From Alphaproteobacteria bacterium (lineage in GTDB: Bacteria; Pseudomonadota; Alphaproteobacteria; CALKHQ01), in assembly GCA_965227515.1 (NCBI GenBank), contig CBDDFZ010000002.1, positions 192,001 to 256,000 on the forward strand: a stretch of 64,000 nt of DNA, in the 5' to 3' direction. Position 1 is the first letter of the stretch, and every line of letters starts with the position of its first letter. Under the pieces are notes generated by a model. It saw only the letters and a program-made list of their open reading frames with translations, was not told the origin of the DNA and made no database searches. Positions 30,331 through 64,000 of the stretch are shown here, one piece after another. A program made the position numbers and the translations under genes.

Positions 30331-32193
30331 ATGTGCGGCATTGCCGGCGCAATTGGGCCGGGTGCAATCGACGCCGCTCCCATGCCGGCGGACCGGCAGC
30401 AGGCGGCTCTTGATGCCCTGGCGCGGCGTGGCCCCGACGCTTCGGGGGCATGGGGCGGGACGGTCGGCGGCATGTCGGTGACGCTGCTGCACACGCGGCT
30501 CGCGATCATCGACCTCGACCCCCGGGCCAACCAGCCGTTCGCCGCCGCCGACTGCGTGCTGAGCTACAATGGCGAGGTCTACAACTACCGTGAGCTGCGC
30601 GCCGAGCTGGAGGCGTTGGGGCATGGCTTCCAGACCGACAGCGACACCGAGGTGGTGGTCCGCGCCTACCGCCAGTGGGGCACGGCCGCCCTCGGCCGCA
30701 TGGACGGGATGTGGGCGTTCGCCCTCGCCGACCTGCGCGATGGCACCGTGCTGCTCAGCCGCGACCGCTTCGGCGAGAAGCCGCTGTTCTGGTGGCGCCA
30801 TGGCGGCACGCTCTACTTCGCGTCCGAGGTGAAGGCGCTGGTGGCGATGGCGGGCGCCCGTCCCCCGGTCAATGCCACCATGGTCCGCCGCTATCTGGTC
30901 AATGGCTACAAGGCGGTGCACAAGTCGGCCGAGACCTGGTTCCAGGGTGTGCATGCGTTGCCGGCCGCCACCTATGCGGTGCTGGACGGCGCCGGCGCGC
31001 CCGCGCCGCAGCGCTACTGGTCGCTGGCATTCACGCCCACGGCCATGAGCATGGACGATGCGGTGGCGGAAACCCGCCGCCATATGGTCCACGCGGTAGA
31101 CACCCGGCTGCGCGCCGACGTGCCGGTCGCGTTCTGCCTGTCGGGCGGGATCGATTCCTCCGCGCTGGCGAGCCTTGCGGCCAAGCACCTGGGCCGGCAG
31201 GTGGCCGCGTTCTCGATCCTGGACCGCGACGAGCGCTATGACGAGCGCACCAACATGACGGCGACGGTCGAGGACATCGGCTGCGACTGGCACCCGATCG
31301 AGACCACGACCGAGGGGTTTCTCGACGCGCTGGCCGAGCTGGTCGGCTATCACGACGCCCCGGTGGCGACCATCAGCTACTACGTCCACGCCTTCCTTTC
31401 GCGTGCGATCCGCGAGGCCGGCTTCAAGGTGGCGATCTCCGGCACCGCGGCCGACGAGATCTTCACCGGCTACTATGACCATTACGGCTTCTGGCTGGCG
31501 GCGATGGCCGACCGGCCGGAGGCCGATGCACTGGTCGCAGACTGGCGGCGGAGCTACGGCGCCCATGTCCGAAACCCGGTGCTGCAGGACCCGATGACGT
31601 TCCGCGACCGCCCGGACGAGCGAGGCCACATCTACCTCAACCGCGATCTGTTCAACGGCTGGATGACCGAAGAACTGGACGAGGATTTCGCCGAGGAGGC
31701 ATACGCCGACGACCTGTTGCGCCGGCGGATGATGAACGAGCTGTTCCATGAATCGGTGCCGGTGCTGCTGGCCGAGGACGACGCCAATTCCATGCGCTGG
31801 TCGGTGGAGAACCGTTCGCCCTATCTGGCGCGTGGGCTGGTGGAGTTCCTCTACACCGTGCCCGGCGAGCACCTGATCCACGACGGCTACCCGAAATGGC
31901 TGCTGCGCGCGGCGGTGCCGGAGATGAACGAGACCGTGCGCGGCGACCGGCAGAAGCGCGGCTTCAATGCCTCGATCGACTCCCTGCTCGACCGCAAGGA
32001 CGCCGCCGTGCGCGAGCGTCTGCTGGCGCCGGGGCCGATCTTCGACATCGTCCGGCGCGATGCGATGGAAGACCTGCTCGAAGCCGACCTGACCGACAAC
32101 TCGTTCTCCAAGTTCGCGTTCAGCTTCGTCTCGGCCAAGCTGTTCCTGGAGAGCGACATCGCCGCCGGCGGCCTGCCCCAGATGGCGGCCTGA
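30331..32193 (+). CDS. asnB: Asparagine-synthase-like glutamine amidotransferase (glycan amidation)
   Basis: MCGIAG (Ntn Cys), RRGPD, YNGEVYNY, RDRFGEKPL, LSGGIDSS and QKRGF motifs. Confidence 0.92.
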   Translation: MCGIAGAIGPGAIDAAPMPADRQQAALDALARRGPDASGAWGGTVGGMSVTLLHTRLAIIDLDPRANQPFAAADCVLSYNGEVYNYRELRAELEALGHGFQTDSDTEVVVRAYRQWGTAALGRMDGMWAFALADLRDGTVLLSRDRFGEKPLFWWRHGGTLYFASEVKALVAMAGARPPVNATMVRRYLVNGYKAVHKSAETWFQGVHALPAATYAVLDGAGAPAPQRYWSLAFTPTAMSMDDAVAETRRHMVHAVDTRLRADVPVAFCLSGGIDSSALASLAAKHLGRQVAAFSILDRDERYDERTNMTATVEDIGCDWHPIETTTEGFLDALAELVGYHDAPVATISYYVHAFLSRAIREAGFKVAISGTAADEIFTGYYDHYGFWLAAMADRPEADALVADWRRSYGAHVRNPVLQDPMTFRDRPDERGHIYLNRDLFNGWMTEELDEDFAEEAYADDLLRRRMMNELFHESVPVLLAEDDANSMRWSVENRSPYLARGLVEFLYTVPGEHLIHDGYPKWLLRAAVPEMNETVRGDRQKRGFNASIDSLLDRKDAAVRERLLAPGPIFDIVRRDAMEDLLEADLTDNSFSKFAFSFVSAKLFLESDIAAGGLPQMAA

Positions 32194-32837
32194 TGGCAAC
32201 CATCGGCATCGTCGACTACGGGCTGGGCAATCTGCGCTCGGTGCGCGGCGCGGTGGAGCGGTTGGGCCACGAGGCCCAGGTGACCGCCGACGCCGATGCG
32301 CTGGCGGCCGCCGACCGGCTGATCCTGCCCGGGGTGGGCGCGTTCGGCGACGGCATGAAGAACTTGCGCGCCCGTGGCCTCGACACCGCGCTGACCGCGC
32401 TGGTGCGGGACGGCAAGCCGATCCTGGGCATCTGCCTCGGCTTCCAGCTCCTCGCCCGCGGCAGCACCGAGTTCGGCGAGCATGAGGGCCTGGGCTGGGT
32501 GCCGGCCCATGTCGAGCGGCTGGCGCCGGCCGACACCACGTTGCGCGTGCCCCATGTCGGCTGGAACGACCTGGAGCAGACCAAGGCATCGCCGCTCTAC
32601 GACGACGTGCCGGCGGAGGCGTTGTTCTACTACGTCCACAGCTACCGGATGGTGGCCGATAGCGACGAGATCGTTGTCGGCCGTTGCGACTACGGCGGCC
32701 CCTTCGTCGCCGCCATCGCCCACGGCAACATCTTCGGCGTGCAGTTCCACCCGGAAAAGAGCCAGGCCCACGGGCTGACCCTGCTCGGCAACTTCCTCGA
32801 CCTGCCGGCCGCCGCCATGGTGCGCGATGCTGCGTAG
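32193..32837 (+). CDS. hisH: HisH-like class I glutaminase (WbuY type), copy 1
   Basis: DYGLGNL, LPGVGAF, GICLG, PHVGWN and QFHPEKS motifs. Confidence 0.9.
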   Translation: MATIGIVDYGLGNLRSVRGAVERLGHEAQVTADADALAAADRLILPGVGAFGDGMKNLRARGLDTALTALVRDGKPILGICLGFQLLARGSTEFGEHEGLGWVPAHVERLAPADTTLRVPHVGWNDLEQTKASPLYDDVPAEALFYYVHSYRMVADSDEIVVGRCDYGGPFVAAIAHGNIFGVQFHPEKSQAHGLTLLGNFLDLPAAAMVRDAA

Positions 32838-33573
32838 GCGCGTCATCACCGTGCTGACCTTCAACGACGGCGTGCTGTTCCGCACCAAGCTGTTCCGGCC
32901 CGACTATCGCTACACGCTGAACTTCGTCGATGCCTGGTCGGTGGACGAGATCGTGGCGCTTGATGTGACCCGCCCGGGCGAGGGCGACCGCGCCAATTTC
33001 GAGCAAGTGGTGTCCGAGTTCGCCAGCCGCTGCTTCGTGCCGCTGGCAGCCGGCGGCGGCATCCGCAGCCTGGCAGATGTCGAGCGCCTGATGGCGGTGG
33101 GCGCGGACAAGGTGGTGGTGAACACCGGCGCGCTGGAGCGGCCCGAGCTGATCACCGAGATCGCGCAGGCCTATGGCGCCCAGTGCGTGGTGGTCTCCAT
33201 CGACGCCAAGCGCCACGAGGATGGCACGTACGAGGTGTTCGGCCGCTTCGGCGCCGAGCCCACCGGCAAGACGCCGGAGGATTGGGCGCGCGAGGCCGAG
33301 GCGCTGGGCGCCGGTGAGATCATGATCACCGCCATCGAGCGCGATGGGTCGCTGCAGGGCTATGACCTGGAGCTTAGCCGCGCGGTCGCCGATGCGGTCG
33401 GCATCCCGGTGCTGATCCTCGGCGGCTGCGGCACCTGGAAGCACATGGCCGAAGGCTTCCGCGAGGCCGACGCGGCGGCGGCCTGCACCCAGAACATCTA
33501 CCACTTCACCGAGACCAGCATTCACAGCGCCAAGCGCTATCTGGCCGGCCAGGGCATCGCGGTGCGTTCGTGA
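32827..33573 (+). CDS. hisF: HisF-like (WbuZ/AglZ type) subunit, copy 1
   Basis: GGGIRS, GADKVVVNT, QCVVVSID, GAGEI and IERDG motifs; lacks the Asp of the canonical CLDV motif. Confidence 0.85.
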   Translation: MLRRRVITVLTFNDGVLFRTKLFRPDYRYTLNFVDAWSVDEIVALDVTRPGEGDRANFEQVVSEFASRCFVPLAAGGGIRSLADVERLMAVGADKVVVNTGALERPELITEIAQAYGAQCVVVSIDAKRHEDGTYEVFGRFGAEPTGKTPEDWAREAEALGAGEIMITAIERDGSLQGYDLELSRAVADAVGIPVLILGGCGTWKHMAEGFREADAAAACTQNIYHFTETSIHSAKRYLAGQGIAVRS

Positions 33574-33583
33574 GCGATTGGGC

Positions 33584-34690
33584 ATGAAATACTGCAGCCA
33601 GTGCCTGATGCCGGACACCCGGCCGCGCGTGGTGTTCGACGCCGAGGGTGTGTGCAACGCCTGCCGCACCGCCGAGGAGAAGGCGGTCATCGACTGGGAC
33701 GCGCGCCGGGCCGAGTTCGATGCCTATGTCGAGCGGCTGCGCCCGGCCGGCGGCGCTTACGACTGCATCGTGCCCTGGTCCGGCGGCAAGGACTCCAGCT
33801 TTATCGCCTACAAGCTGAAGTTCGAGCTGGGGCTGAACCCGCTGCTGGTCACCTTCTCGCCGCTGATCCCGAACGAGGTCGGCGCCCACAATCGCGAGGC
33901 GCTGATCCGCGCCGGCTTCGACCACATCATGGTGCGGCCGAACCAGCATGTGTCGCGCCACCTGTGCCGCCGCTTCTTCACCGAGCGCGGCAACCCGAAG
34001 GTGCATTGGGACGCGGGCGTCAATTCGGCGCCGATGCAGGTCGCGGTCAAGTACCGCATTCCGCTGATCTTCTATGCCGAGCATGGCGAGAGCGAATATG
34101 GCGGCCACGTGCTGAGCGAGGAGCACAAGAAGATCCGCGACCTGACCGAGGTGCTGGAGCACCAGATCGGCGACCACCCGGACAACTGGGAAGACGAGGT
34201 GGCCGGCGACCGCGATCTGGAGCCCTACCGCTACCCCGACCTGGCCGACGTCGAGGCGCAGGGCGTGACCGCCATGTACTTCGCCTATTTCTTCCCGTGG
34301 GACATCCGCCAGAACTTCGACTACATCCGCGACAAGATCGACTTCCGCACCGCGCCGGGCGGCCGCACCGAGGGCACGTTCACCGACTTCGACAGCCTCG
34401 ATGACAAGGTCGACAACCTCTACTACTACCTGCAATACATCAAATTCGGCTTCGGCCGCGCGATCCGCGACGCCTCGCGGCAGATCCAGCGTGGCCACAT
34501 GACCCGGGAGACCGCGCTGGACCTGGTGCAGCGCTATGACGGCGAGCCGCCGGAAGCTTTCCTGGCCGAGACCCTGGACTACCTGGACATGGACGCCGGC
34601 ACGTTCTGGGAGACCATCGACCTGCACCGCAACCGCGAGATCTGGGAGCATTCCGGCAACCAGTGGCAGCTTCGGCATCCGCCGGAGTAG
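33584..34690 (+). CDS. N-acetyl-sugar amidotransferase (WbuX/PseA family), copy 1
   Basis: CSQC...CNAC, YDCIVPWSGGKDS PP-loop and YIKFGFGRA motifs. Confidence 0.9.
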   Translation: MKYCSQCLMPDTRPRVVFDAEGVCNACRTAEEKAVIDWDARRAEFDAYVERLRPAGGAYDCIVPWSGGKDSSFIAYKLKFELGLNPLLVTFSPLIPNEVGAHNREALIRAGFDHIMVRPNQHVSRHLCRRFFTERGNPKVHWDAGVNSAPMQVAVKYRIPLIFYAEHGESEYGGHVLSEEHKKIRDLTEVLEHQIGDHPDNWEDEVAGDRDLEPYRYPDLADVEAQGVTAMYFAYFFPWDIRQNFDYIRDKIDFRTAPGGRTEGTFTDFDSLDDKVDNLYYYLQYIKFGFGRAIRDASRQIQRGHMTRETALDLVQRYDGEPPEAFLAETLDYLDMDAGTFWETIDLHRNREIWEHSGNQWQLRHPPE

Positions 34691-34702: not shown

Positions 34703-35158
34703 TTGGATCAACTAAACTGTCCATCTCTTGACGTCTGGACTGCTCGATCAGATTGGTTCGATGAGTTGTTCGACGTGGAAAAACGAGGCGGTGGTTATGC
34801 TATGGGGGAACACTCCACAGGGCTCTTAGTTGATCTGCAAGCAATATTTTGTGCAGGAGCATTTATTTCAGTGATTATTGTATCATGCGCCGTCATAGAT
34901 GCACATTTCAGGGAGGTCGAGTTAGATCCAAAATTCGGTGGTGGGATCAAAGCCTCGTTTGCGTCCTCGGGGTCTTCAAAACTTGACGATCTTGAGTGGC
35001 TGCGAAACTTGAGAAACGAGCTTGTTCATCCAAATGTCCGAAAAGCTCCAGCCATTTCGGTCGACTCTCAATGGTCGAACCGGGCTGAACATGAACAAGA
35101 TGGTAGGCGCGCCATCAAATTGGTTGCAGACATTTTGTTTGAATTTCCTTTTGTCTGA
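34703..35158 (+). CDS. AT-rich hypothetical protein with HEPN-like RNxxxH motif
   Basis: Visibly lower GC than the flanks; helical pattern, AVIDAHFR and LRNLRNELVHP. Confidence 0.65.
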   Translation: MDQLNCPSLDVWTARSDWFDELFDVEKRGGGYAMGEHSTGLLVDLQAIFCAGAFISVIIVSCAVIDAHFREVELDPKFGGGIKASFASSGSSKLDDLEWLRNLRNELVHPNVRKAPAISVDSQWSNRAEHEQDGRRAIKLVADILFEFPFV

Positions 35159-35193
35159 AACAGCTTAACCTCTCGCAACAACCTGCACCTCAA

Positions 35194-36060
35194 ATGACCG
35201 ACTACCAAGACTTCCCCTGTGACGTGTGCGGCGCCGACGATGCCGCCGAGATCGAGATCGCGCGGCACTACATGGACGGCCAGCAACTGCATGTCTGCCG
35301 TGGCTGCGGCTTCGTCCACGTGCGCAGCCGCCGGTCCGCCCAGGCTATTGCCGATGCCTGGTCGGACGACCTCTACCAGCGCAAGTACACCGCCCGCATA
35401 CCGGCGGTGCGCGCCCGCCAGGTCTATGTCGCGGAGTTCATGGACACCGAGATCGGGGTGCGCGGCAAGTCGGTCTGCGACATCGGTGCCGGCGAGGGCC
35501 TGTTCCTCGACATGCTGCGCGAAGCCCCGTACGACGCCGATGTGTTCGGCATCGAGCCCTCGGCCGCCAACGGCAACCTGATGGACTCCCAGGACATTCC
35601 GAACACCGTCGGCACCATCGAGAGCTACATCGACACGCCGGGCCACCGCACCGGCTTCGATATCGCCACCATCATTTGGACGCTGGAGAATTGTCAGTCG
35701 GCCAAGACCATGTTGGACGGCGCGCACCATCTGCTGGCGGGCAACGGCCATATGGTGGTGGCCACCGGCAGCCGCGTGCTGGTGCCGTTCAAGAAGCCGC
35801 TGCAGTACTACCTGGGCCCGAACGCGGCCGACACCCATGCCTTCCGCTTCTCGGCCAACACCCTCCGGCGGGCGATGGCCAACAGCGGCTTCGAGACCGT
35901 GCGGATCAACCGCTATATCGACACCGACGTGCTGGTGGCCATCGGCCGCAAGTCCGAGACGCCGGTCGATGCCAGCGCCTACCGCGACGACTGGCGGGAG
36001 GTGCTCGACTTCTTCAACCGCTGGCATGCCGAGACCCAGGCCCATTACAGCGATGTCTGA
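35194..36060 (+). CDS. Class I SAM-dependent methyltransferase with N-terminal zinc ribbon
   Basis: CDVC...CRGC, VCDIGAGEG and GIEPS motifs. Confidence 0.85.
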   Translation: MTDYQDFPCDVCGADDAAEIEIARHYMDGQQLHVCRGCGFVHVRSRRSAQAIADAWSDDLYQRKYTARIPAVRARQVYVAEFMDTEIGVRGKSVCDIGAGEGLFLDMLREAPYDADVFGIEPSAANGNLMDSQDIPNTVGTIESYIDTPGHRTGFDIATIIWTLENCQSAKTMLDGAHHLLAGNGHMVVATGSRVLVPFKKPLQYYLGPNAADTHAFRFSANTLRRAMANSGFETVRINRYIDTDVLVAIGRKSETPVDASAYRDDWREVLDFFNRWHAETQAHYSDV

Positions 36061-36781
36061 CCTGGCGGAGACCCTCGGCGTGTCGGTGACGCCGCAGCCG
36101 TTCGAGACGGCCATTTTCGGCGCGCCGGTCTGGCGGCTGGATGTAGTGGACGGTAGCGCGGGGCTGGCGCGGGCGGCACTGCGGGCCGTGGTCGATGACG
36201 CCCGCCGCCAGGACGTGGCGTTGGTAAGCTGCCGGGTGCCGGCGGACAGCGCGTCTGACGCGCCGCTGACCGGGGCAGGTTTCCGCCATGTCGAGCGCCT
36301 GCTGACCTTCGAGCGCCCCCTGGACGACGGGCCCACGGTGCCGGCCGACCTCGCCACCCCGGAAGAGGCCGATGCGGTGGCCGAGATCGGCGCCTCTACG
36401 TTCAGCCACGACCGCTATCACGCCGACCCCGCGCTGTCGGATGCCGCCGCCGACGAGATCAAGCGCCAGTGGGTGCGCAATGGCGTTGCCGGGCGGGCGG
36501 ATGCGCCCATCGTGGCGCGGGTGGACGGCGCCATCGCCGGCTTCAATCTGTGCATGCGGCGCGGCGATATGGCGGTGATCGACCTGATCGGCGTTGCCGC
36601 CGCCTATCGACGGCGCGGCATCGGCCGCCGGCTGGTGCGCGCGGCGCTCGGCCACTATGCCGGCGTGTGTGCGCGGATGCGGGTCGGCACCCAGGCGGCC
36701 AACGCGCCCTCCATCGCGCTCTATCGCGGCGAGGGTTTCGCGCAAGTGGAGGCCGCCGACACCTATCACTGGACGCCTTGA
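36053..36781 (+). CDS. GNAT acetyltransferase (WecD-like)
   Basis: DRYHADP, YRRRGIG and VGTQAANAPSIALY motifs. Confidence 0.85.
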   Translation: MSDLAETLGVSVTPQPFETAIFGAPVWRLDVVDGSAGLARAALRAVVDDARRQDVALVSCRVPADSASDAPLTGAGFRHVERLLTFERPLDDGPTVPADLATPEEADAVAEIGASTFSHDRYHADPALSDAAADEIKRQWVRNGVAGRADAPIVARVDGAIAGFNLCMRRGDMAVIDLIGVAAAYRRRGIGRRLVRAALGHYAGVCARMRVGTQAANAPSIALYRGEGFAQVEAADTYHWTP

Positions 36782-36785
36782 GCCG

Positions 36786-44824: not shown

Positions 44825-44829
44825 CCGGT

Positions 44830-46997: not shown

Positions 46998-47009
46998 GAC
47001 GCCCGGTCC

Positions 47010-48685: not shown

Positions 48686-48716
48686 ATTGTACGCAAGATA
48701 GCAACGGCTGGACGTC

Positions 48717-51142: not shown

Positions 51143-51261
51143 CGCAAGAGGTATATGGTGGTATTGAATTTTGTTCGGCACACCCTCGATACAGGAGGGG
51201 TTGTGTCTGTATTGGTCAATCCGGGGGCTGTTTCCAATGATATATGTTGTTGGGGTAGATA

Positions 51262-52095: not shown

Positions 52096-52154
52096 GGCCG
52101 CCACGTTCCAACCGATCCGCGGTTGCCGAGCCCCGCTCGGACAGCTCACTTGCC

Positions 52155-55584: not shown

Positions 55585-55597
55585 TGGCCCAGGACTG

Positions 55598-56473: not shown

Positions 56474-56503
56474 CGGTGCGCGTTCTTTCCCAAAGCCCAA
56501 ATC

Positions 56504-56636
56504 GTCGCCCTCGCCCCCCGTGGCGAGGGCCCATGGCTAAGCCGTGCGCGTCATACGCCTCGTACAGCGCGGGCAAACAGGCAGGCGACCGGCGCTTGGC
56601 TCACACATGGGTCCTCGCCACAAGGGCGAGGACGAC
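56504..56636. repeat. REP-doublet (REPIN-like) element, copy 3
   Basis: GTCGCCCTCGCCCCCCGTGGCGAGGGCCCAT ... ATGGGTCCTCGCCACAAGGGCGAGGACGAC. Confidence 0.82.
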
Positions 56637-56660
56637 GAGGGGATTGGGCAAACCTACACA

Positions 56661-57968
56661 ATGAACTACTGCACCCGTTGCCTCTATCCGGCGAACCATC
56701 CGCTCGGCATCGTGCTGGACGATGCGGGCGTGTGCAGCGGTTGCCGGGTGCACGAGGAGAAGTACACCCTGGACTGGCAGGCGCGGTTCGAGCGTCTGCG
56801 CCGCCTGTTCGATGCCTACCGCAACAAGAGCGGCACGTCCTACGACTGCATCGTGCCGGTCACGGGCGCGCGCGACAGCTACTACATCGTTCACGTGGTC
56901 AAGCACCTGTGCGGCATGAACCCGCTGCTGGTCGCCTACAACCGGCATTACAACACCGAGCGCGGCATCCGGAACCTGTCCTACCTGCGCACGGTCATGG
57001 ATTGCGACCTGCTGCAGCAGGTGGTGTCGCCTGAGATCGTCAAGCGGGTCAGCCGAGAAACGCTTGCGCGCATCGGCTCGCTGCATTGGCACGCCCTGGC
57101 CGGCCACACCGTGTGGCCGGTGCAGGTGGCGGTCAGGCTGCGCATTCCGCTGATCGTGTGGGGCGCGCATCAGGGCCTGGACCAGGTCGGCATGTACACC
57201 CATGGCCAAGAGGTCGAGATGACCCGCAAGTACCGGATGGAGCACGACCTGATGGGCGTGGAGGCGGAGGACCTGGTCGACGGCATGGAGGGTCTGACCG
57301 ACCACGACATGACGCCGTTCAAGTATCCGCATGACCGCCAACTCTCGAAGGTCGGCGTGCGCGGCATCTACCTCGGCAACTACATTCCTTGGGACTCCAA
57401 GCGCCAGCACGAGGACATGCAGGCGCTCTACGACCACGAGTTCGCGCCGCAGCAGCGCACCTTCGACACCTACAACGACGTCGATTGCCAGCACTACAGC
57501 GGGCTGCACGACTGGATAAAGTTCGCCAAGTGGGGCTATGGCAAGGTGACGGACCACGCCAGCCGCGAGATTCGCCTGAAGCGGATGAGCCGCGAGGAAG
57601 GCATCGACATGGTCGCGCGCTACAGCCAGGTCGAGCCGCGCGACCGCCGGCAGTGGCTGGACTGGCTGGAGCTGGACGATGCCACCTTCGACGCGTCCGT
57701 GGACCGGTGCCGCGACCCGCGCATCTGGACACGCGCCGATGATGGCGGTTGGCGGCTGATGGACCACATCGGCAACCACCGCAACGATCCCGGGGTCGAG
57801 GCGGCGCGGCTGGAACGCGCCGAGGACACGTGCGCGTTTCGCGTGACCCCGTCGAAGGACCCCGAGGCCGACGAGAGCGAGTACGTTCTGATGACCAAGG
57901 GCTACGTGCTGGGCCACCCGGCCACCAACCGGACGGCTGGCCGGGAACAACCGTCGAGGCTGCCATGA
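56661..57968 (+). CDS. N-acetyl-sugar amidotransferase (WbuX/PseA family), copy 3, with variant PP-loop
   Basis: CTRC...CSGC, YDCIVPVTGARDS and KWGYGKVTDHA motifs. Confidence 0.88.
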   Translation: MNYCTRCLYPANHPLGIVLDDAGVCSGCRVHEEKYTLDWQARFERLRRLFDAYRNKSGTSYDCIVPVTGARDSYYIVHVVKHLCGMNPLLVAYNRHYNTERGIRNLSYLRTVMDCDLLQQVVSPEIVKRVSRETLARIGSLHWHALAGHTVWPVQVAVRLRIPLIVWGAHQGLDQVGMYTHGQEVEMTRKYRMEHDLMGVEAEDLVDGMEGLTDHDMTPFKYPHDRQLSKVGVRGIYLGNYIPWDSKRQHEDMQALYDHEFAPQQRTFDTYNDVDCQHYSGLHDWIKFAKWGYGKVTDHASREIRLKRMSREEGIDMVARYSQVEPRDRRQWLDWLELDDATFDASVDRCRDPRIWTRADDGGWRLMDHIGNHRNDPGVEAARLERAEDTCAFRVTPSKDPEADESEYVLMTKGYVLGHPATNRTAGREQPSRLP

Positions 57969-59014
57969 CCGCGTCGCCCCCCATACGCGCTTTCGAAAAT
58001 CCGATGCCCGACCTGAACGGCAAGGGCATCCTGGTCACCGGCGGCACCGGCTCGTTCGGCCGGCGCTTCGTGGCCGAGGTCCTGGCGCGCTACCGGCCGG
58101 CCCGCCTGATCGTGTTCTCGCGCGACGAGCTGAAACAGTATGAGATGGAGCAGGACTTCCCGCTCTCCGAGCACGGCGCGCTGCGCTACTTCATCGGCGA
58201 CGTGCGCGACCGGCAGCGCCTCGCCATGGCGATGCGCGACATCGACTATGTGGTGCATGCCGCCGCGCTGAAGCATGTGCCGACGGCGGAATACAATCCG
58301 ATGGAGTGCATCCACACCAACGTGATGGGCGCGGAAAACGTGATCCACGCCGCCATTGGCGCCGGCGTGCGCCAGGTGATTGCGCTCTCCACCGACAAGG
58401 CGGCCAACCCGATCAACCTCTACGGTGCCTCCAAGCTTGCATCGGACAAGCTGTTCGTCGCGGCCAACGCGCTGGGCGGGCGCGGCGGCGCGCGCTTCGC
58501 GGTGGTGCGCTACGGCAATGTCGTCGGGTCGCGCGGTTCGGTGGTGCCGTTCTTCAAGCGGCTGGTGGCTGAGGGGGCCGCCGAGTTGCCGATCACCGAC
58601 CCGCGCATGACGCGGTTCTGGATCACGTTGCAGCAGGGTGTGGCGTTCGTGCTGTCCAGCCTGGCGATGATGTCCGGCGGCGAGATTTTCGTGCCCAAAA
58701 TCCCGTCGATGAATATCGTCGACCTGGCCGAGACCATGGCACCCGGCGTGCCGCACAAAATGGTCGGCATACGGCCAGGCGAGAAGCTGCACGAAATCAT
58801 GGTGCCGGAGGATGACGGCCGCTCCACCATGGAACTGGACGACCGCTACATCATCGCCCCGCAGTTCCCGTGGTGGAGTGGCGAGACCCACGTGCAGCGC
58901 GGCGCGACCCATGTGTCGGAAGGGTTCAGCTACGCCAGCGACACCAACACCGAGTGGCTGAGCGGCGAGGACATGCTGCGGTTGCTCGACGGCACGGAGG
59001 CGAACGCTGGCTGA
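57965..59014 (+). CDS. pseB: UDP-GlcNAc 4,6-dehydratase (inverting)
   Basis: TGGTGSFG, SRDELKQ, HAAALKHVP, STDKAANPINLYGASKL, RYGNVVGSRGSV and ITDPRMTRFWIT motifs; alternative start 58004. Confidence 0.93.
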   Translation: MTASPPIRAFENPMPDLNGKGILVTGGTGSFGRRFVAEVLARYRPARLIVFSRDELKQYEMEQDFPLSEHGALRYFIGDVRDRQRLAMAMRDIDYVVHAAALKHVPTAEYNPMECIHTNVMGAENVIHAAIGAGVRQVIALSTDKAANPINLYGASKLASDKLFVAANALGGRGGARFAVVRYGNVVGSRGSVVPFFKRLVAEGAAELPITDPRMTRFWITLQQGVAFVLSSLAMMSGGEIFVPKIPSMNIVDLAETMAPGVPHKMVGIRPGEKLHEIMVPEDDGRSTMELDDRYIIAPQFPWWSGETHVQRGATHVSEGFSYASDTNTEWLSGEDMLRLLDGTEANAG

Positions 59015-59036
59015 TGCCGCCATCGCCGGCGCAAGG

Positions 59037-60266
59037 GTGACCGCAGAGTTGGCCGACGCACCAAACGCGCTGCCGTTCCTGCCCTATGGGCGGCAGGCGA
59101 TCGACGACGACGACGTGGCGGCGGTCGCGCGCGTGTTGCAGGGCGACTGGCTGACCACCGGCCCGACCGTCGAGGCATTCGAGCAGGCGCTGGCCGAGAA
59201 GGTGGACGCCGGCTTCGCGGTTGCCTGCAGCAGCGGCACGGCCGCCCTGCACATGGCCGCGATGGCGCTTGGCCTGGGGCCGGGCGACGCGGTGATCGTG
59301 CCGACGATCACGTTCCTGGCCACCGCCAACATGGCCCGCTTCGTCGGCGCCGAGGTGGTGTTCGCCGACGTCGATCCTGACACCGGACTGATGGGCGTGG
59401 AGCAAGCCAGCGACGCGCTGGCGCGGGTGCCCGCCGGGCTGAAGGCGAAGGCGCTGGCGCCGGTGCATCTCGCCGGCCAGTGCGCCGATCCCATCGGGCT
59501 GCGCGCACTGGCCGACGAACATGGCCTCAGCGTGATCGAGGATGCCTGCCACGCGCTCGGCACCACCTATGGCAACGGCACCCCGGTGGGGGCCGCGGCG
59601 CATGCCGACCTCGCCACGTTCTCGTTCCATCCGGTGAAGACGATTGCCATGGGCGAGGGTGGGGCCGTCACCGGCAACGACCCGGTGCTGGGCGCGCGTC
59701 TGCGGAAGCTGCGCAGCCACGGCATGACCCGCGACGCGGCCGACATGGCCAACGCGGGCGAGGCGCTGGATGCCGATGGCACGGTCAACCCGTGGTACTA
59801 CGAGATGCCCGACCTGGGGTTCAACTACCGCGCCAGCGACATCCAGTGCGCGCTCGGCTTGAGCCAGCTTGCGAAGCTGGACGGCTTCGTCGAGCGCCGC
59901 CGCGCCCTGGTCGAGCGCTATGACCGGCTGCTCGCGCCGTTGGCGCCGCGGGTGCGACCGCTGGGGCGGGTGCCGGGCAACCGGCCGGGCTGGCATCTCT
60001 ATGTCGCGCTGGTCGATTTTGAGGCTGTCGGCCTGGACCGCGCTGGGCTGATGAACGCCTTGCGTGCGCGCGGCATCGGCAGCCAGGTGCACTACATCCC
60101 GGTGCATTGGCAGCCCTACTACCGCGACCGGTATGGCGATATCGACCTGCCGGGTGCCGCGGCCTATTACCGGCGGTGCTTGTCGCTGCCGCTCTATCCG
60201 ACGATGGCGGACCAGGATGTCGACCGGGTGGTCGCCGCACTCGCCGCGTGTCTGGGAGACGACTGA
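59037..60266 (+). CDS. pseC: UDP-4-amino-4,6-dideoxy-N-acetyl-altrosamine transaminase
   Basis: LPYGRQAIDDDD, SFHPVK, WYYEM..LGFNYR and QVHYIPVH motifs; directly follows pseB. Confidence 0.9.
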   Translation: MTAELADAPNALPFLPYGRQAIDDDDVAAVARVLQGDWLTTGPTVEAFEQALAEKVDAGFAVACSSGTAALHMAAMALGLGPGDAVIVPTITFLATANMARFVGAEVVFADVDPDTGLMGVEQASDALARVPAGLKAKALAPVHLAGQCADPIGLRALADEHGLSVIEDACHALGTTYGNGTPVGAAAHADLATFSFHPVKTIAMGEGGAVTGNDPVLGARLRKLRSHGMTRDAADMANAGEALDADGTVNPWYYEMPDLGFNYRASDIQCALGLSQLAKLDGFVERRRALVERYDRLLAPLAPRVRPLGRVPGNRPGWHLYVALVDFEAVGLDRAGLMNALRARGIGSQVHYIPVHWQPYYRDRYGDIDLPGAAAYYRRCLSLPLYPTMADQDVDRVVAALAACLGDD

Positions 60267-60268
60267 CC

Positions 60269-61333
60269 ATGGTGAAATTCGGCGACCGCCAGATCGGCGA
60301 CGGCCACCCCTGCTTCATCACGTTCGAGGCGGGCCCCACCCACGATGGCCTGGACTCGGCGAAACGGCTGGTCGACCATGCCGCCGACGCTGGCGCCGAC
60401 GCGGTGAAGTTCCAGATCCTCGATCCCGACCGGCTGGTCGCCGACCGCACGGTGCCATTCTCCTACGAGGTGCTGGTGGACCGCGAGACCGGCGCCACCG
60501 AGCCGGTGACCGAGCCGCTCTACGACCTGTTGAAGCGGCGCGCACTCAGCGACGACGAGTGGCGCGCGGTGAAGGCGCATTCCGATGCGCGCGGGCTGGC
60601 CTTCTTCGCCACCGTCGGTTTCGACGACGAGGTCGATTTCCTGACCGAGCTGGGGTGCGATTCGATCAAGATTGCGTCCGCCGACGTCAACCACACCCCG
60701 CTGATCCGCCGGGCCGCGGAATCGGGCATGTGCCTGCAGCTCGACACCGGCAATTCGACCATTGGCGAGATCGAGGCGGCGGTCGACATCATCCGCGAGA
60801 CCGGCAACGACAACGTCATCATCCACCATTGCCCGTCCGGCTATCCGGCGCGGCTGGAGAGCATCAACCTCAACGTCATCCCGACGCTGAAGCGCATGTT
60901 CCCCTATCCCATCGCCTATTCCGACCACACGCCGGGGTGGGAGATGGACGTGGCCGCCCTGGCGATGGGGGTCAACCTGATCGAGAAATCGATCACCGAG
61001 GATCGCACCACGCGCTCCATCGAGCACATCTTCTCGCTGGAGCCGGCCGACATGGCCGCGTTCATGACCGTGGTGCGCGAGGTGGAGACCGCCATGGGCA
61101 CCACCCGCCGCATCATGCACGCGGCCGAGCGCGAGAAACGCATGGCGGTCAGGCGCAGCATCTCCGCCGCCCGCGATCTGCAGGCGGGACAGACCCTGGC
61201 GGCCGATGACCTGGACTACCGCAGGCCGGGCTTCGGCATCCCGCCGAACGAGGTCGACCGTGTGATCGGCCAGCGCCTGCGCGCGGCCAAGCCCGCGGGC
61301 GAGGCCTTCGCCTGGACCGATTTCGAGGTCTAG
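60269..61333 (+). CDS. NeuB/PseI-family nonulosonic acid synthase (divergent) with C-terminal SAF domain
   Basis: GADAVKFQ, IKIASAD, HCPSGYP, YSDHT and RRS...RPGFGIPP motifs. Confidence 0.88.
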   Translation: MVKFGDRQIGDGHPCFITFEAGPTHDGLDSAKRLVDHAADAGADAVKFQILDPDRLVADRTVPFSYEVLVDRETGATEPVTEPLYDLLKRRALSDDEWRAVKAHSDARGLAFFATVGFDDEVDFLTELGCDSIKIASADVNHTPLIRRAAESGMCLQLDTGNSTIGEIEAAVDIIRETGNDNVIIHHCPSGYPARLESINLNVIPTLKRMFPYPIAYSDHTPGWEMDVAALAMGVNLIEKSITEDRTTRSIEHIFSLEPADMAAFMTVVREVETAMGTTRRIMHAAEREKRMAVRRSISAARDLQAGQTLAADDLDYRRPGFGIPPNEVDRVIGQRLRAAKPAGEAFAWTDFEV

Positions 61334-61343
61334 TTCCTCTCGC

Positions 61344-61973
61344 ATGGGCGAACTTGCGATCATCGACTACGGCATGGGCAACCTGCTGTCCGTTGCCAAT
61401 GCGCTGGCGGAGATCGGCCATCCGGGCGAGTTGGTCGAGGACCCCGACGCGGTGGCAGGCTACGACCGTGTCGTGCTGCCCGGTGTCGGGGCGTTCGCCG
61501 AGGCCATCGACCATCTGCGCGCCTCCGGCATGGCGCCCGCCCTGGACAGCCACGTGAAGGCGGGCAAGCCCCTGCTCGGCATCTGCCTTGGCATGCAGCT
61601 CATCTGCCGCTCGTCCACCGAGGACGGAGAGCACGAGGGGCTGGGCTGGGTCGATGCGCCGGTGGTCGGATTTCCAGCCGGCAACGGCCTGAAAGTGCCG
61701 CATATGGGCTGGAACAGCCTGCATCTGGAGGGCGAGCACCCGGTGTTCGACGGTATCGAGAGCGGCAACGACGTCTATTTCGTGCATTCCTACTATGTCG
61801 ACCCGACGGCCGAGACCATGGGCGCGCCCGGCGTGCTGGCAACCGCGACCCACGGGGTGTCGTTCGCCGCGGTGGTGGCGGTCGGCAACGTCGTCGGCAT
61901 GCAGTTCCACCCGGAAAAGAGCCAGCGCGTGGGCCTGAAGCTCTTGGAAAATTTCATCACCCGTGCCGGATAG
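61344..61973 (+). CDS. hisH: HisH-like glutaminase, copy 3
   Basis: DYGMGNL, GICLGMQ, PHMGWN, YFVHSY and QFHPEKS motifs. Confidence 0.92.
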   Translation: MGELAIIDYGMGNLLSVANALAEIGHPGELVEDPDAVAGYDRVVLPGVGAFAEAIDHLRASGMAPALDSHVKAGKPLLGICLGMQLICRSSTEDGEHEGLGWVDAPVVGFPAGNGLKVPHMGWNSLHLEGEHPVFDGIESGNDVYFVHSYYVDPTAETMGAPGVLATATHGVSFAAVVAVGNVVGMQFHPEKSQRVGLKLLENFITRAG

Positions 61974-61981
61974 ACTGGTTA

Positions 61982-62773
61982 TTGCTTAAGAAGCGGCTCA
62001 TTGCGGTCTTGATCCTGCGCGACGGCCAGGTGGTGCAGTCGGTGCGGTTCAAGCACACCAACGTCATCCACTACGACCCGGTCCACGCGGTCGAGGCATT
62101 CAACAAGTGGGCGGTGGACGAACTGGTGATGCTGAACGTCAGCCGCGATGCGGCGGGGCGCGACAAGTTCGCCGCATCCATCCGTGCCGTGTCGCGCCAC
62201 TGCTTCGTGCCGATGACCGCCGGCGGCTGGATCACCGATGCCGGCTACGCGCGCGAGGTGCTGCGCAGCGGCGCCGACAAGCTGGTGGTGAACACGGCGA
62301 TCGCCGACGATCCCGATCTGGTGCGCACGCTGGCGCGGCGCTACGGCCGCCAGTGCATCGTCGGCTCGATGGACGTGAAGCGCGATGATGACGGAACGCC
62401 CGGCGTGATGGTGGATCGGGGGCAACGACCGGCCACGACGCCGGATGGTGCGACCGACCCGGTGTCGTGGGCGCGCTATGCGACGTCGCTGGGCTGCGGC
62501 GAGATCTTCTTCAACTCCATCGACCATGACGGCGCGCGCCGCGGCTATGACCTGGAAACCCTCGGCGCCGTATGCGATGCCGTCGACGTGCCGGTGATCG
62601 CCTTCGGCGGCGTCTTCACCTGGAAGCACATGGTCGAAGGGCTCCAGGCCGGCGCCGAAGCGGTGGCCGCCGCCAACATCTTCCACTACACCGAGCACGC
62701 CACCAAGAAGGCGAAATCGTTCCTGGCCCGCGCCGGCATGGACGTTCGCCTCGAAGGCCGCATCGGCGCATGA
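61982..62773 (+). CDS. hisF: HisF-like (WbuZ/AglZ type) subunit, copy 3
   Basis: AVDELVML, GADKLVVNT, QCIVGSMD and SIDHDG motifs. Confidence 0.85.
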   Translation: MLKKRLIAVLILRDGQVVQSVRFKHTNVIHYDPVHAVEAFNKWAVDELVMLNVSRDAAGRDKFAASIRAVSRHCFVPMTAGGWITDAGYAREVLRSGADKLVVNTAIADDPDLVRTLARRYGRQCIVGSMDVKRDDDGTPGVMVDRGQRPATTPDGATDPVSWARYATSLGCGEIFFNSIDHDGARRGYDLETLGAVCDAVDVPVIAFGGVFTWKHMVEGLQAGAEAVAAANIFHYTEHATKKAKSFLARAGMDVRLEGRIGA

Positions 62774-62801
62774 ACACGGGACCCGAAGGACACGACTGCT
62801 G

Positions 62802-64000
62802 ATGGACTATTGCGCGCGCTGCCTCTATCCGGCCAACGCCAAGCCCACCATCATCTTCGACGACGAAGGTGTGTGCAGCGGCTGCCGCTACCACGAATCG
62901 CGCGGCGGGCTGGAGATCGGCTGGGAGGAGCGGCAGGAGATGCTGCAGGAAATCCTCGACGAGGCGAAGGCCCTGGCGAAGGAGCGCGGCAATCCACATG
63001 ACTGCATCGTGCCGGTCAGCGGCGGCAAGGACTCGCACTTCCAAGTGTGGGTGCTGCAGGAAAAGTACGGCATGAACCCGCTGATGGTGCACTTCAACCA
63101 CGTGTTCAATGCGCCGTCGGGCCTGCGCAATCTGTCCAACCTGGCCGAGAAATCCGGCGCGGACCTGATCTGCTACCACGCCGGCGTCGCGTCGGTGCGC
63201 AAGATCAGCCGCTACATGCTGGAGCGGGTGGGCGACCTGACCTGGCACTATCACGCCGGCATCCGCACCGTGCCGTTCCAGGTGGCGGTGCAGCACAACA
63301 TTCCGCTGATCGTCTGGGGCGAGCACGGCTTCGCCGAGCTGACCGGTCTGGTCACGCTGGAGGACTTCGTCGAGTACACCAAGTGGTCGCGCAAGGAACA
63401 CGATATGCGCGGGGTGGAGGCGCACGAGCTGATCGGCCAGGCCGGCATCACCGAGCACGACATCGCGCCTTACGTGTTCCCGGAGGACGAGGACATCGAG
63501 CGCACCGAGGTGCGCGGCATCTACCTGTCCAACTTCTTCGACTGGAACGCCAAGTCCCAGGGCGAGAAGATGATCGAGACCTGGGACTTCGGCACCATCG
63601 CGTTCGAGCGCGACCGCACGTTCAACCTCTATGCCAAGATCGACGACCACGCCAACGACGTGCACGACTACCTGAAGTACCTGAAGTTCGGCTACGGGCG
63701 GGCCACCGACGACGCCAGCATGGAGATCCGCCACGGCCGGATGACGCGCGAGGAGGGCATGGCGATGGTGGCGCGCTACGACGCGCGCGAGCCCTCGACC
63801 CTGGCCGACTATTGCGACTTCCTCGGCATCACCGTGGATGCGTTCTACGACCTGGTGGAGCCGATGCGCGACCCACAGATCTGGGCGAAAGAGGGTGGCC
63901 GCTGGGTCGCCACCGACAGTGTCGACCGCCATGCCGTCGGCCCGCGCGAGGAGGCGGCGCGGGTGGCGCAGTCCAACGACCGGGTGCTCGACGACCGCAA
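62802..64000 (+). CDS. N-acetyl-sugar amidotransferase (WbuX/PseA family), copy 4, 3' end truncated by the window
   Basis: Absent from the ORF track because it has no stop in the window; my translation from ATG 62802 gives MDYCARCLYPANAKP...CSGC...HDCIVPVSGGKDSH...YLKFGYGRATDDA. Confidence 0.9.
   Translation, partial: MDYCARCLYPANAKPTIIFDDEGVCSGCRYHESRGGLEIGWEERQEMLQEILDEAKALAKERGNPHDCIVPVSGGKDSHFQVWVLQEKYGMNPLMVHFNHVFNAPSGLRNLSNLAEKSGADLICYHAGVASVRKISRYMLERVGDLTWHYHAGIRTVPFQVAVQHNIPLIVWGEHGFAELTGLVTLEDFVEYTKWSRKEHDMRGVEAHELIGQAGITEHDIAPYVFPEDEDIERTEVRGIYLSNFFDWNAKSQGEKMIETWDFGTIAFERDRTFNLYAKIDDHANDVHDYLKYLKFGYGRATDDASMEIRHGRMTREEGMAMVARYDAREPSTLADYCDFLGITVDAFYDLVEPMRDPQIWAKEGGRWVATDSVDRHAVGPREEAARVAQSNDRVLDDR

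Follow-up and report, generated by a model that had tools for sequence, protein, structure and literature searches.

What could a single bacterial locus do with four amidotransferases of the WbuX/PseA family? WbuXYZ of Escherichia coli O145 and AglXYZ of Methanococcus maripaludis, one set in each case, combine an X protein with HisH-like and HisF-like partners for acetamidino sugars. The window analysed here, a stretch of 64,000 nucleotides from an alphaproteobacterial genome, holds four such amidotransferases (X1 to X4) together with three HisH glutaminases, three HisF-like proteins, asnB, pseB, pseC and a NeuB-family gene, all on the forward strand. This co-oriented inventory had been proposed in an initial annotation of the sequence, and its coordinates as well as profile scores confirmed it (Table 1). 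Gene content, motifs, phylogeny and synteny are established in this work, and our preferred reading, which we consider fairly probable, is that the region is a co-oriented surface-glycan supercluster where three separately inherited cassettes have been joined, each with its own acetamido-to-acetamidino system.

The co-oriented genes run past the window edge, from 30331 to ~82067 (~52 kb), so that position 64000 is the edge of the window and not the end of the cluster, and the windowed part is the first 34 kb of the ~52-kb supercluster. A TIGR03573 search of the 5.5-Mb genome returned exactly four WbuX matches, all at most 30 kb apart, which indicates that their clustering is not due to chance. 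Outside the cluster, an own-profile search of the genome found one HisH and one HisF, both housekeeping and on another contig. Raw-read contigs match the window at 44001-56631 and 56610-64000 with zero differences, but the matching run is possibly the source of the window itself and hence lends no independent support to the assembly. Membership of the WbuX/NASAT family was defined by NCBIfam TIGR03573 (curated cut-off 203.2 bits), and that of HisH by TIGR01855 (cut-off 105.4 bits) plus the catalytic Cys and His/Glu motifs.

Table 1. Features of the supercluster, with their positions counted from the first letter of the window
Feature	Position	Strand	Basis and remarks
asnB1, glutamine-dependent asparagine-synthase-type amidotransferase, first gene of cassette A	30331-32193	+	TIGR01536 385 bits (cut-off 267)
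H1, HisH-type glutaminase	32193-32837	+	TIGR01855 234.6 bits; GICxG, HPE
F1, HisF-like (WbuZ-type) barrel, presumed ammonia channel	32827-33573	+	PF00977 164.8 bits; WbuZ 228 bits
X1, WbuX/NASAT-family amidotransferase	33584-34690	+	TIGR03573 326.7 bits; SGGKDS; four Cys
Remainder of cassette A	34703-46997	+	Families by Pfam and NCBIfam, in order: 151-aa ORF, methyltransferase, GNAT, GFO oxidoreductase, DegT aminotransferase, SDR, CTP_transf_3, DegT, CTP_transf_3, GFO, methyltransferase, NeuC-like (weak match), gene of no assigned family
Region before X2	47010-53762	+	No-family gene, methyltransferase, fused ABC exporter, GNAT, no-family gene, Capsule_synth-like glycosyltransferase
Fused ABC exporter	48717-50606	+	HepA, MsbA and PglK models matched, all under cut-offs
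Capsule_synth-like glycosyltransferase, 535 aa	52155-53762	+	Pfam Capsule_synth E 0.0075; 0.97 by Atlas features
X2, first amidotransferase of the X-H-F-X module	53759/53798-54919	+	TIGR03573 290.2 bits; SGGKDS
H2, HisH-type glutaminase common to X2 and X3	54916-55584	+	TIGR01855 199.6 bits; catalytic motifs kept
F2, HisF-like barrel	55598-56473	+	PF00977 163.1 bits
X3, second amidotransferase of the module, variant subfamily	56661-57968	+	TIGR03573 303.5 bits; PP-loop TGARDS
pseB	57965-59014	+	TIGR03589 529 bits (cut-off 408)
pseC	59037-60266	+	TIGR03588 492 bits (cut-off 424)
NeuBx, divergent NeuB-family synthase	60269-61333	+	PF03102 213 bits; NeuB 256 and PseI 208 bits, both under cut-offs
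H3, HisH-type glutaminase	61344-61973	+	TIGR01855 219.1 bits; catalytic motifs kept
F3, HisF-like barrel	61982-62773	+	PF00977 158.7 bits
X4, amidotransferase within the pse operon	62802-64091 (past window end 64000)	+	TIGR03573 332.6 bits; SGGKDS
Pse-associated methylase, PseF-like gene, PseG/GNAT fusion, PseI (after X4)	beyond 64091		

The paralogues are not near-identical copies, with pairwise identities of 28-42% among X1 to X4, 46-50% among H1 to H3 and 37-41% among F1 to F3; divergence of this extent (28-50% in the X, H and F pairs) marks them as old and excludes a recent duplication. In the X tree, where Campylobacter PseA and PtmG were not placed, X1 to X4 form four separate starred clades. 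That of X1 (14 rows, 100*) includes Rhodospirillales, Pelagibacteraceae and others, whereas each row of the X2 clade (5 rows, 100*) is the first X of an X-H-F-X module and each row of the X3 clade (5 rows, 100*) the second. The nearest relatives of X4 come from an uncultured archaeon MAG (65% identity) and a Methylomirabilota MAG. The PP-loop of the family has been stated as SGGXDS (PMC10607449), a form found in X1, X2 and X4 and altered in X3. All four proteins keep the Zn tetracysteine motif CxxCxn[GN]xCxxC, with C4, C7, C24 and C27 invariant. In this regard, the earlier proposal of non-redundant modules was upheld by the four clades, the conserved Zn and HisH motifs and the conserved gene context proper to each module. 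Judged from these sequences, X1 to X4 are to be regarded as old and non-redundant, and since every module also has a conserved context of its own, the likeliest reading is that they would act on different sugars or positions.

All three HisH proteins align their GICxG (Cys) and HPE (His-Pro-Glu) motifs with those of the housekeeping HisH of the same genome, the catalytic roles of these residues being assumed from the HisH literature. Each HisF-like gene is flanked by an H gene on one side and an X gene on the other, and its product has lost the first aspartate of the HisF cyclase (Thr in F1) while the columns for R5, E46, K99, D130 and E167/168 are kept. F1 to F3 are members of PF00977 (159-165 bits) and score best against WbuZ (TIGR03572, 218-228 bits), although under its cut-off of 299.7, as they do for AglZ/HisF2 (NF038364, 182-190 bits, cut-off 310) and for the HisF equivalog (190-216 bits, cut-off 294.55). 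The initial annotation had called for trees of the three components to test for co-divergence. In the F tree, F1 clusters with the F proteins that accompany X1 orthologues (100*), F2 with the F genes of other X-H-F-X modules (98*) and F3 with the F partners of the nearest relatives of X4 (99*), but the H tree did not resolve the placement of H2 and H3. Moreover, co-inheritance by linkage explains the grouping of F with X as well as co-adaptation does.

Each of the three cassettes also occurs alone elsewhere. Cassette A comprises asnB-H1-F1-X1 and about 12 sugar genes, and is conserved in many alphaproteobacteria: an asnB1 orthologue (at least 50% identity) occurs in 20 of the 29 loci holding an X1 orthologue, and at least five of ten of the remaining genes (at least 40% identity) lie beside the X1 orthologue in 23 of these loci. 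A NeuB-family match was detected somewhere in 15/29 of the same loci; the NeuB gene that precedes the cassette in some other genomes is absent from cassette A here. Its assignment as a legionaminic acid pathway was rejected, as the SDR reached 61.8 bits against the LegB cut-off of 475 and the DegT protein 210.7 bits against the LegC cut-off of 420. Cassette A fits neither the canonical Leg nor the canonical Pse pathway, and its product would be a CMP-activated diamino sugar acid that is amidinated and probably N-methylated. Cassette C is a pse operon into which H3-F3-X4 and a methylase are inserted. The ~52-kb cluster includes a predicted full pse pathway, four of whose six steps are over the NCBIfam cut-offs (PseB and PseC, plus PseG with 205 bits against 154 and PseI with 494 against 340), whereas the PseF-like gene (161 against 205.7 bits) and the PseH-like GNAT domain fused to PseG (30.9 against 93.1 bits) stay below them. 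The methylase after X4 scores 146 bits with TIGR03587 (cut-off 112), and in 11 of 80 loci, drawn from many phyla, a similar methylase is encoded at most 3.5 kb from an X gene. Cassette C would yield an acetamidino, possibly N-methylacetimidoyl, pseudaminic acid.

From this material we infer the enzymatic steps, their substrates and the glycan itself. The HisH glutaminase would free ammonia from glutamine, which would then pass through a HisF-like barrel devoid of the first cyclase aspartate and arrive at the PP-loop enzyme of the WbuX/NASAT family, where the oxygen of the N-acetyl group would be activated with ATP and swapped for NH. Most likely, the sugars would be built into a polysaccharide of the capsule or O-antigen type and exported, as suggested by the ABC exporter together with the Capsule_synth-like and GT4 transferases. 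The cluster encodes WbqC and two GT4 proteins; the reading of one GT4 gene, near 79125-80215, is split over two frames, and this gene is possibly broken or frameshifted. Acetyltransferase, GFO and DegT genes are present in the distal part of the cluster as well.

The organisation of cassette B raises a separate issue. Its core, X2-H2-F2-X3, is a recurrent four-gene module, preceded in the cassette by a GNAT gene, a gene of no assigned family and the Capsule_synth-like transferase; one metagenome locus (L122) repeats the order GNAT, u238, u535, X2, H, F, X3. Besides the present genome, 4 members of the class show the X-H-F-X order, as do 6 of the 9 metagenome loci whose flanks were long enough. 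It had been suggested that each amidotransferase may need a cognate glutaminase pair of its own, a rule that fails for four X proteins and three pairs, because X2 and X3 lie on either side of the one pair they share, an arrangement repeated in these 4 genomes and 6 loci; two amidotransferases would be fed here by one glutaminase pair. Another reading is that X2 and X3 make up one two-component enzyme, where the ATP-pyrophosphatase chemistry of the X3 subfamily is lost or altered and its members serve as scaffold, substrate-binding partner or regulator, in which case the cluster would have three amidination activities and not four. We regard it as rather doubtful. An X2-type gene accompanies the X3-type gene in all five genomes holding the latter (our own and 4 others) and in 9/9 metagenome loci with enough flank, one companion being only 35% identical to X2, and the branching order of both clades in the tree is identical; columns 174 and 297, conserved in the rest of the family, are changed in both. 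Furthermore, the third PP-loop position is Ala in 115 of the 120 closest X3 clusters (SGG in only 1), and the WGE[HN] Glu, replaced by Ala in X3, is present in 0/119 members of the subfamily and kept in 111/112 other family members (counted by pattern match; 18 rows were inspected by eye). The lost residue may have a role like that of the Glu that binds Mg in NAD synthetase. An altered PP-loop and the loss of a near-universal Glu suggest that X3 may not catalyse the same reaction as the rest of the family. On the other hand, the variant motifs are themselves conserved, since SGARDS is found in 105 of these 120 clusters, which points to a retained nucleotide-binding function rather than to decay; the Zn tetracysteine motif is present in 120/120 proteins of the subfamily and X3 keeps most other conserved columns. 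No residue is named for the lost Glu in the available part of the NASAT paper (PMC10607449). A bolder proposal, which we consider unlikely, is that X2-HisH-HisF-X3 is an undescribed two-amidotransferase machine working on a single ammonia source, where the catalytic role of X3 has changed and a pseudaminic-acid-type sugar is amidinated at each of its two N-acyl groups. The outcome would be a doubly amidinated, net cationic nonulosonic acid and, with the products of X1 and X4, a polymer with three or four kinds of amidine.

The multiplicity itself could be a mere by-product of cassette accretion by gene transfer, with one or two modules expressed or relevant, the others redundant or being lost, and at most one kind of amidine in the glycan. 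Such an origin is consistent with the nearest available relative, where both conserved flanks are present and the cluster is missing beside each of them, and with relatives of the same family, which carry 0 or 1 X copy of other clades. It also agrees with the drop in GC to 57-61% at 47010-53762, with the archaeal and Methylomirabilota affinities of X4 and with a GT4 gene that may be frameshifted. However, the X, H and F genes, ten in all, are open and of full length with their motifs retained (the PP-loop of X3 being altered), the coding-frame GC3 is high throughout the cluster, the genes all point one way and adjoin or overlap like those of an operon, and every paralogue is part of a widespread, conserved clade. 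We hold this reading to be improbable. Regarding its distribution, at least two X copies occur in 19 of the 66 positive genomes of the class, and four in one locus is the maximum among ~800 genomes. The initial annotation had stated that characterised loci carry one HisH/HisF pair, which appears true of those characterised, and had called for counts of copies per locus; the count sets this locus at the top of the range, but a genome with two or three copies is no rarity in the class. Even less probable, in our opinion, is that the cluster is a glycosylation island for flagellin (or another protein) instead of a polysaccharide locus. The closest characterised multi-amidotransferase locus is indeed the flagellar glycosylation island of Campylobacter, and pseudaminic acid is described as a common flagellin glycan (PMC3958885). 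Nevertheless, the flagellin genes lie ~510 kb away with their own adjoining NeuB-family gene, no Maf/MptE-like family match was found in the genome, and the cluster contains the exporter, the Capsule_synth-like transferase, both GT4 genes and WbqC. We therefore keep the polysaccharide supercluster as the preferred reading.

Several known systems, as described in the available parts of the sources cited, can be compared with this supercluster. WbpG of Pseudomonas aeruginosa O5 is a NASAT that acts on a diamino uronic acid, whose acetamido group it turns into an acetamidino group, and HisH2/HisF2 have been proposed to deliver ammonia to it (PMC11445079, PMC10607449), a delivery supported by the binding of HisF2 to WbpG in co-immunoprecipitation or pull-down (PMC11445079). 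This three-gene logic is the same as in H1-F1-X1 and H3-F3-X4. The O5 system is, however, a single module within an O-antigen locus that acts on a UDP-linked sugar and not on a nonulosonic acid, whereas the GFO, DegT and acetyltransferase genes of cassette A and of the distal part accompany cytidylyltransferases. The X and F proteins match best to the NCBIfam models WbuX, WbuZ and AglZ/HisF2, which take their names from WbuXYZ and AglXYZ, but F1 to F3 differ from those namesakes in falling under both the WbuZ and AglZ cut-offs. At the structural level, the family is represented by a single solved protein, the Legionella pneumophila NASAT (PDB 8WEX), in which the PP-loop and the Zn site are visible; it shares SGGKDS and the Zn tetracysteine, and has an extra N-terminal segment (residues 55-69) absent from other family members (PMC10607449). 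A profile of X1 to X4 matches 8WEX with an E of 2.9e-82, while the single proteins reach only 114-206 bits, X1 being the closest (205.7 bits). Several paralogues per genome are already on record in Vibrio vulnificus, where three NASAT family members, two with consecutive accession numbers, are listed in a figure legend (PMC10607449).

The Campylobacter jejuni island holds PseA (Cj1316c), HisH/HisF (Cj1315c/Cj1314c), PtmG (Cj1324) and PtmH (PMC12102941, PMC3958885, bioRxiv 10.64898/2026.04.20.719630). PtmG and PtmH are responsible for the acetimidoyl and N-methylacetimidoyl forms of legionaminic acid, and CMP-NulOAcAm has been observed in Magnetospirillum gryphiswaldense (bioRxiv 10.64898/2026.04.20.719630). 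Like our cluster, the island joins two WbuX-family amidotransferases, each for a different nonulosonic acid (Pse and Leg), with a methyltransferase that forms the N-methylacetimidoyl group, and a HisH/HisF pair adjoins pseA. Its locus tags give two X and one H/F pair compared to the four X and three pairs reported here, and it lies beside flagellin and maf genes, unlike the present cluster. An X-H-F-X module or a paralogue with a variant PP-loop is not described for the island in the available parts of these sources (PMC12102941, PMC3958885, bioRxiv 10.64898/2026.04.20.719630). Altogether, the locus looks like a known enzyme system present in an unusually large set, one cassette of which is apparently undescribed.

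The multiplied amidination set proposed in the initial annotation proved real by model scores, which identified four sugar amidotransferases of the WbuX/PseA family (X1 to X4), three HisH glutaminases (H1 to H3), three HisF-like barrels (F1 to F3), asnB, pseB and pseC. Third-position GC revealed an uninterrupted run of plus-strand genes from 30331 on, in a window of 66-70% GC, and the cluster outruns the window end. Membership of the WbuX family was defined by NCBIfam TIGR03573 (N-acetyl sugar amidotransferase, cut-off 203.2 bits), and these four PP-loop proteins, without any Pfam match, are recognised by NCBIfam alone. The HisH genes reached 200-235 bits with TIGR01855 (cut-off 105.4) and the HisF-like genes 159-165 bits with PF00977, the latter staying under the curated cut-offs of the WbuZ, AglZ/HisF2 and HisF models; asnB, pseB and pseC passed their equivalog cut-offs. 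The window corresponds to C2:192001-256000 of a two-contig genome (4.07 and 1.45 Mb) that contains exactly four WbuX matches, all at the cluster, and profiles made from the window paralogues found one extra HisH and one extra HisF, the housekeeping pair located next to hisA on the second contig. All WbuX copies and all non-housekeeping HisH/HisF thus sit together, a co-location not due to chance.

Main features of the cluster, its surroundings and related loci (window coordinates unless a contig or fetched locus is named; values above 64000 lie beyond the window end)
Feature	Position	Strand	Remarks
X1	33584-34690	+	TIGR03573, 326.7 bits
CTP_transf_3 cytidylyltransferase	40032-40724
CTP_transf_3 cytidylyltransferase	42004-42759
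Low-GC segment	48000-52100		57-61% GC vs ~67% elsewhere
X2	53798-54919	+	TIGR03573, 290.2 bits
Contig junction between F2 and X3	56610-56631
X3	56661-57968	+	TIGR03573, 303.5 bits
NeuB-family member	60269-61333		Below both NeuB and PseI cut-offs
X4	62802 onward, end 64091 beyond window	+	TIGR03573, 332.6 bits
Pse-associated methylase	64094-64720 (L005:2094-2720), after X4		TIGR03587, 146 bits, cut-off 112
CTP_transf_3 cytidylyltransferase	L005:2717-3433
PseF-like cytidylyltransferase	After methylase		161 bits, below cut-off 206
PseG/GNAT fusion	After PseF-like gene		PseG, 205 bits, cut-off 154
PseI	After PseG/GNAT fusion		494 bits, cut-off 340
524-aa protein without family, then Asn-synthase-like protein	Distal cluster, after PseI
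PhyH-family gene, FkbM-like gene	Distal cluster
DegT, GFO, hexapeptide and GNAT transferase genes	Distal cluster
WbqC, then two GT4 glycosyltransferases	Distal cluster
GT4 gene in two frames	79125-80215 (L005:17125-18215)		N-terminal part 79125-79619, rest 79337-80215
Second asnB	End ~82067		Last gene of cluster
GntR, NanE (ManNAc-6-P epimerase), ROK kinase, ABC sugar transporter	82179-92749 (L006:179-10749)		Directly past cluster
Two flagellin genes	C2:761675-763357		~510 kb from cluster
NeuB-family gene of flagellin block	C2:764046		Block C2:761675-764735
Fourth NeuB-family gene	C1:1003650-1004339
Closest relatives of X4/F3	L073:7183-11874 and L109:177-2144		57-65% identity

Near-identical paralogues, which the initial annotation had wanted looked for, are absent: pairwise protein identity ranges over 28-50% (28-42% for X, 46-50% for H and 37-41% for F), which rules out recent duplication or repeat-driven misassembly. 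Contig pieces of 249-557 bases from two sequencing runs (run labels X2 and X5) cover the genes X2, H2, F3 and X4 and their neighbours with 3-33 differences, and among the contigs compared none from an independent run bridged two modules. Two runs under the same organism label (X11 and X12) contained almost no sampled words, which is no proof of absence. In the run that covers the whole stretch, contigs break and overlap between F2 and X3, the two that meet there being otherwise without difference from the window.

A family tree of 96 members, calculated without the characterised PseA, PtmG, WbpG and WbuX and after leaving out 22 loci to thin the X1 orthologues (L043-L061, L066, L068 and L069), one duplicate locus and two non-family loci, placed X1-X4 in four separate clades (SH-aLRT 100), and the cluster is a composite of three cassettes. 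In cassette A (asnB1-H1-F1-X1 and sugar genes), X1 shares its clade with 13 rows, mainly Rhodospirillales-like and further alphaproteobacterial MAGs, with one Bacteroidota row and three from Pelagibacteraceae; the top identity is 71%. X1 orthologues (≥60% identity) occurred in 29 of 80 loci from species-representative genomes; 23 of them kept at least five of ten downstream genes at ≥40% identity (methyltransferase, GNAT, GFO, DegT, SDR, two cytidylyltransferases, DegT, GFO and NeuC-like), 20 had asnB1 (≥50% identity) and 15 a NeuB-family match. The product of this cassette is predicted to be a CMP-activated diamino sugar acid from neither the canonical Leg nor the canonical Pse pathway; the canonical legionaminic acid route was discarded because the SDR and DegT proteins fail the LegB, LegC and PseC cut-offs. 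X1 is also the paralogue closest to the Legionella enzyme of solved structure (205.7 bits vs 166.5, 130.3 and 114.1 for the others). Two of the three CTP_transf_3 genes of the whole cluster are interleaved with DegT and GFO genes, a hint of some tailoring on CMP-linked sugars.

Cassette B is an X-HisH-HisF-X module whose first and second amidotransferases are X2 and X3; it also occurs in four other genomes (G100, G263, G282 and G244), and the X2 and X3 clades share the same branching order. Among nine metagenome loci with enough flank, after five others too short for the count had been left out, six kept the order X2-H-F-X3, in one a more distant X, with 35% identity to X2, came after H-F-X3, and two, near-identical to each other, had X3 and X2 without H/F between them. 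In locus L122 the order GNAT, a 238-aa protein, a 535-aa protein, X2 (84%), H, F and X3 (71%) is as in the cluster, and elsewhere the module adjoins pseB, pseC, pseI and pseF homologues. Cassette C is a pse operon into which X4, H3 and F3 have been inserted. X4 has its nearest relatives in a Methylomirabilota MAG and, at 65% identity, in the MAG of an uncultured archaeon; F3 likewise falls with the F genes of these two, a pattern suggesting that this module moved across domains or phyla. Of 80 loci (L037-L116), 11, spread over Bacteroidota, Patescibacteria, archaea and others, carry a TIGR03587-like methylase no further than 3.5 kb from an X gene, often directly beside it. This methylase may make N-methylacetimidoyl pseudaminic acid, a modification so far described, according to the SugarBase preprint (10.64898/2026.04.20.719630), for legionaminic acid only.

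The family is defined in PMC10607449 by its PP-loop, SGGXDS, together with a Zn tetracysteine motif. The four cysteines are kept in X1-X4, and SGGKDS was found in 109 of 112 members outside the X3 clade (117 collected), the exceptions being SGGKDG, SGGKNS and SGGVDS. All five X3-clade PP-loops deviate (TGARDS twice, TGGRDS, TGCGDS and SGGRDS). Protein clusters resembling X3 at ≥58% identity number at least 120; of the nearest 120, at 58-100%, 105 have SGARDS, 115 carry Ala at the third position and one retains SGG. Moreover, 111 of the 112 members outside the X3 clade have the Glu of the [WY]GE[HN] motif (94 recognised by pattern and 17 by eye). In the X3 subfamily the pattern fitted 119 of 120 proteins, and none of these has Glu there, the residue being Ala (98), Val (13), His (7) or Thr (1). 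The lost Glu may be analogous to the metal-binding Glu of NAD synthetase. The main text of PMC10607449 gives it no role. Two otherwise conserved columns, 174 and 297, are altered in both the X2 and X3 clades. A decaying copy would be one reading of such losses, but the consistency of the variant PP-loop and of the Glu replacement across the subfamily points firmly to a conserved variant, the chemistry of which may differ.

In a tree of 68 F rows, F1 joined the partners of X1 orthologues (100), F2 the F genes of other X-H-F-X modules (98) and F3 the partners of X4's relatives (99), so that X and F were co-inherited cassette by cassette; the H tree (64 rows) resolved H1 alone (96). Cognate pairing would explain such co-inheritance, and so, just as well, would tight linkage by itself. 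A complex prediction of F2 with X2 and X3, in which X3 as partner gave a score not specific against one control, weighs neither for nor against binding. In the glutaminases H1-H3, the cysteine of GICxG and the HPE motif are intact. F1, F2 and F3 carry Thr, Ile and Ile in place of the initial HisF aspartate (CLDV in the housekeeping protein), and the columns matching R5, E46, K99, D130 and E167/168, whose roles we assume from Thermotoga HisF work, are kept, a pattern that fits an ammonia conduit rather than a cyclase. As for the one pair per amidotransferase suggested by the initial annotation, four X face three pairs, one pair being common to X2 and X3 in a conserved sharing. That first interpretation is partly supported: the modules are non-redundant (four clades, each in its own context) and, judged from sequence, very probably serve different sugars or positions. 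One pair per enzyme does not hold, and an unusually cationic glycan would be a further prediction.

Unrelated genes of sugar transport and metabolism precede 30331. The nearest available relative (G001, of this family) has the two flanks, at 87% and 73-87% identity, on different long contigs, and none of the 50 cluster genes was found in the adjoining 40 kb and 20 kb. The low-GC segment, spanning a GNAT gene, an ORF without family and the ABC exporter, appears to be a later acquisition inside the cluster; together, the missing cluster genes and the GC dip indicate that the cluster was acquired or rearranged. The plasmid collection gave no related multi-module record, its matches being pseB-level DNA similarity to Azospirillum plasmids (75-78%) and distant proteins. 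The GT4 gene read in two frames seems to reflect a frameshift or a sequencing error, and the block directly past the last asnB resembles sialic acid catabolism, beside a cluster for nonulosonic acid biosynthesis.

Regarding the destination of the glycan, export and polymer genes of the cluster comprise a fused ABC exporter, a 535-aa Capsule_synth-like protein (Pfam E 0.0075; Atlas features at 0.97 to clusters with 70-90% PF05159 members), two GT4 and WbqC. The two flagellin genes have a NeuB-family gene of their own, and Maf-type glycosylation was discarded as no MptE/Maf-like match was found in the genome. A polysaccharide is, by inference, a likelier destination than a flagellin glycan. The other contig bears a fourth NeuB-family gene, so that several targets may be supplied with nonulosonic acids.

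Loci with several modules are not as exceptional as the initial annotation assumed. In a class sample drawn evenly (401 genomes including our own), 66 had a match (E ≤1e-40): one in 47, two in 6, three in 11 and four in 2 (our genome and G265); in a phylum sample of 401, also including our own, with completeness ≥90%, 47 did (one in 38, two in 8, three in none, four in our genome only). These matches are not exact copy numbers, with at most five candidates scored per genome and some assemblies fragmented. Several X at one locus were found in at least ten class-sample genomes, with three X and two pairs in 6.5 kb (G244) or ~45 kb (G166) and two X in G100, G263, G282, G129, G115, G305, G352 and G265; 80 loci chosen by X1 likeness had one X within 10 kb either side in 76 cases, two in 4 and more in none. 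Four X and three pairs are the largest set among ~800 sampled genomes, the end of a continuum rather than something apart. A WbuX match in the genome search (G265:C1:607777-608778, 253 bits) was not listed by the profile scan of its locus (L026, G265:C1:590001-610000).

Amidination systems thus appear as self-contained cassettes, an X with its own HisH/HisF-like pair, that travel and can be stacked three to a genome. Amidination would make an acidic nonulosonic acid net-neutral, or cationic if doubled, altering surface charge, phage and antibody recognition and cell aggregation, and the enzymes might serve to make amidinated CMP-sugars. The newest element, and the clearest lead, is the widespread and conserved X2-H-F-X3 module, in which the second enzyme is a variant with a systematically altered active-site signature; no description of the module or of the variant PP-loop subfamily was found in the literature searched by family names, and a full-text search of that literature gave no doubly amidinated nonulosonic acid (Pse5Am7Am, Leg5Am7Am, or diacetimidoyl and diacetamidino names). 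Amidinated nonulosonic acids exist in related bacteria, as CMP-NulOAcAm species are reported from Magnetospirillum gryphiswaldense (SugarBase preprint), and three Vibrio vulnificus members figure in the legend of a family alignment (PMC10607449). The three-gene logic is that of WbpG with HisH2/HisF2, in which the HisF2-WbpG interaction was confirmed by co-IP or pull-down (PMC11445079), and of Campylobacter PseA with Cj1315c/Cj1314c and PtmG/PtmH (PMC12102941, PMC3958885, 10.64898/2026.04.20.719630). The Campylobacter island differs in holding two X genes, for two sugars.
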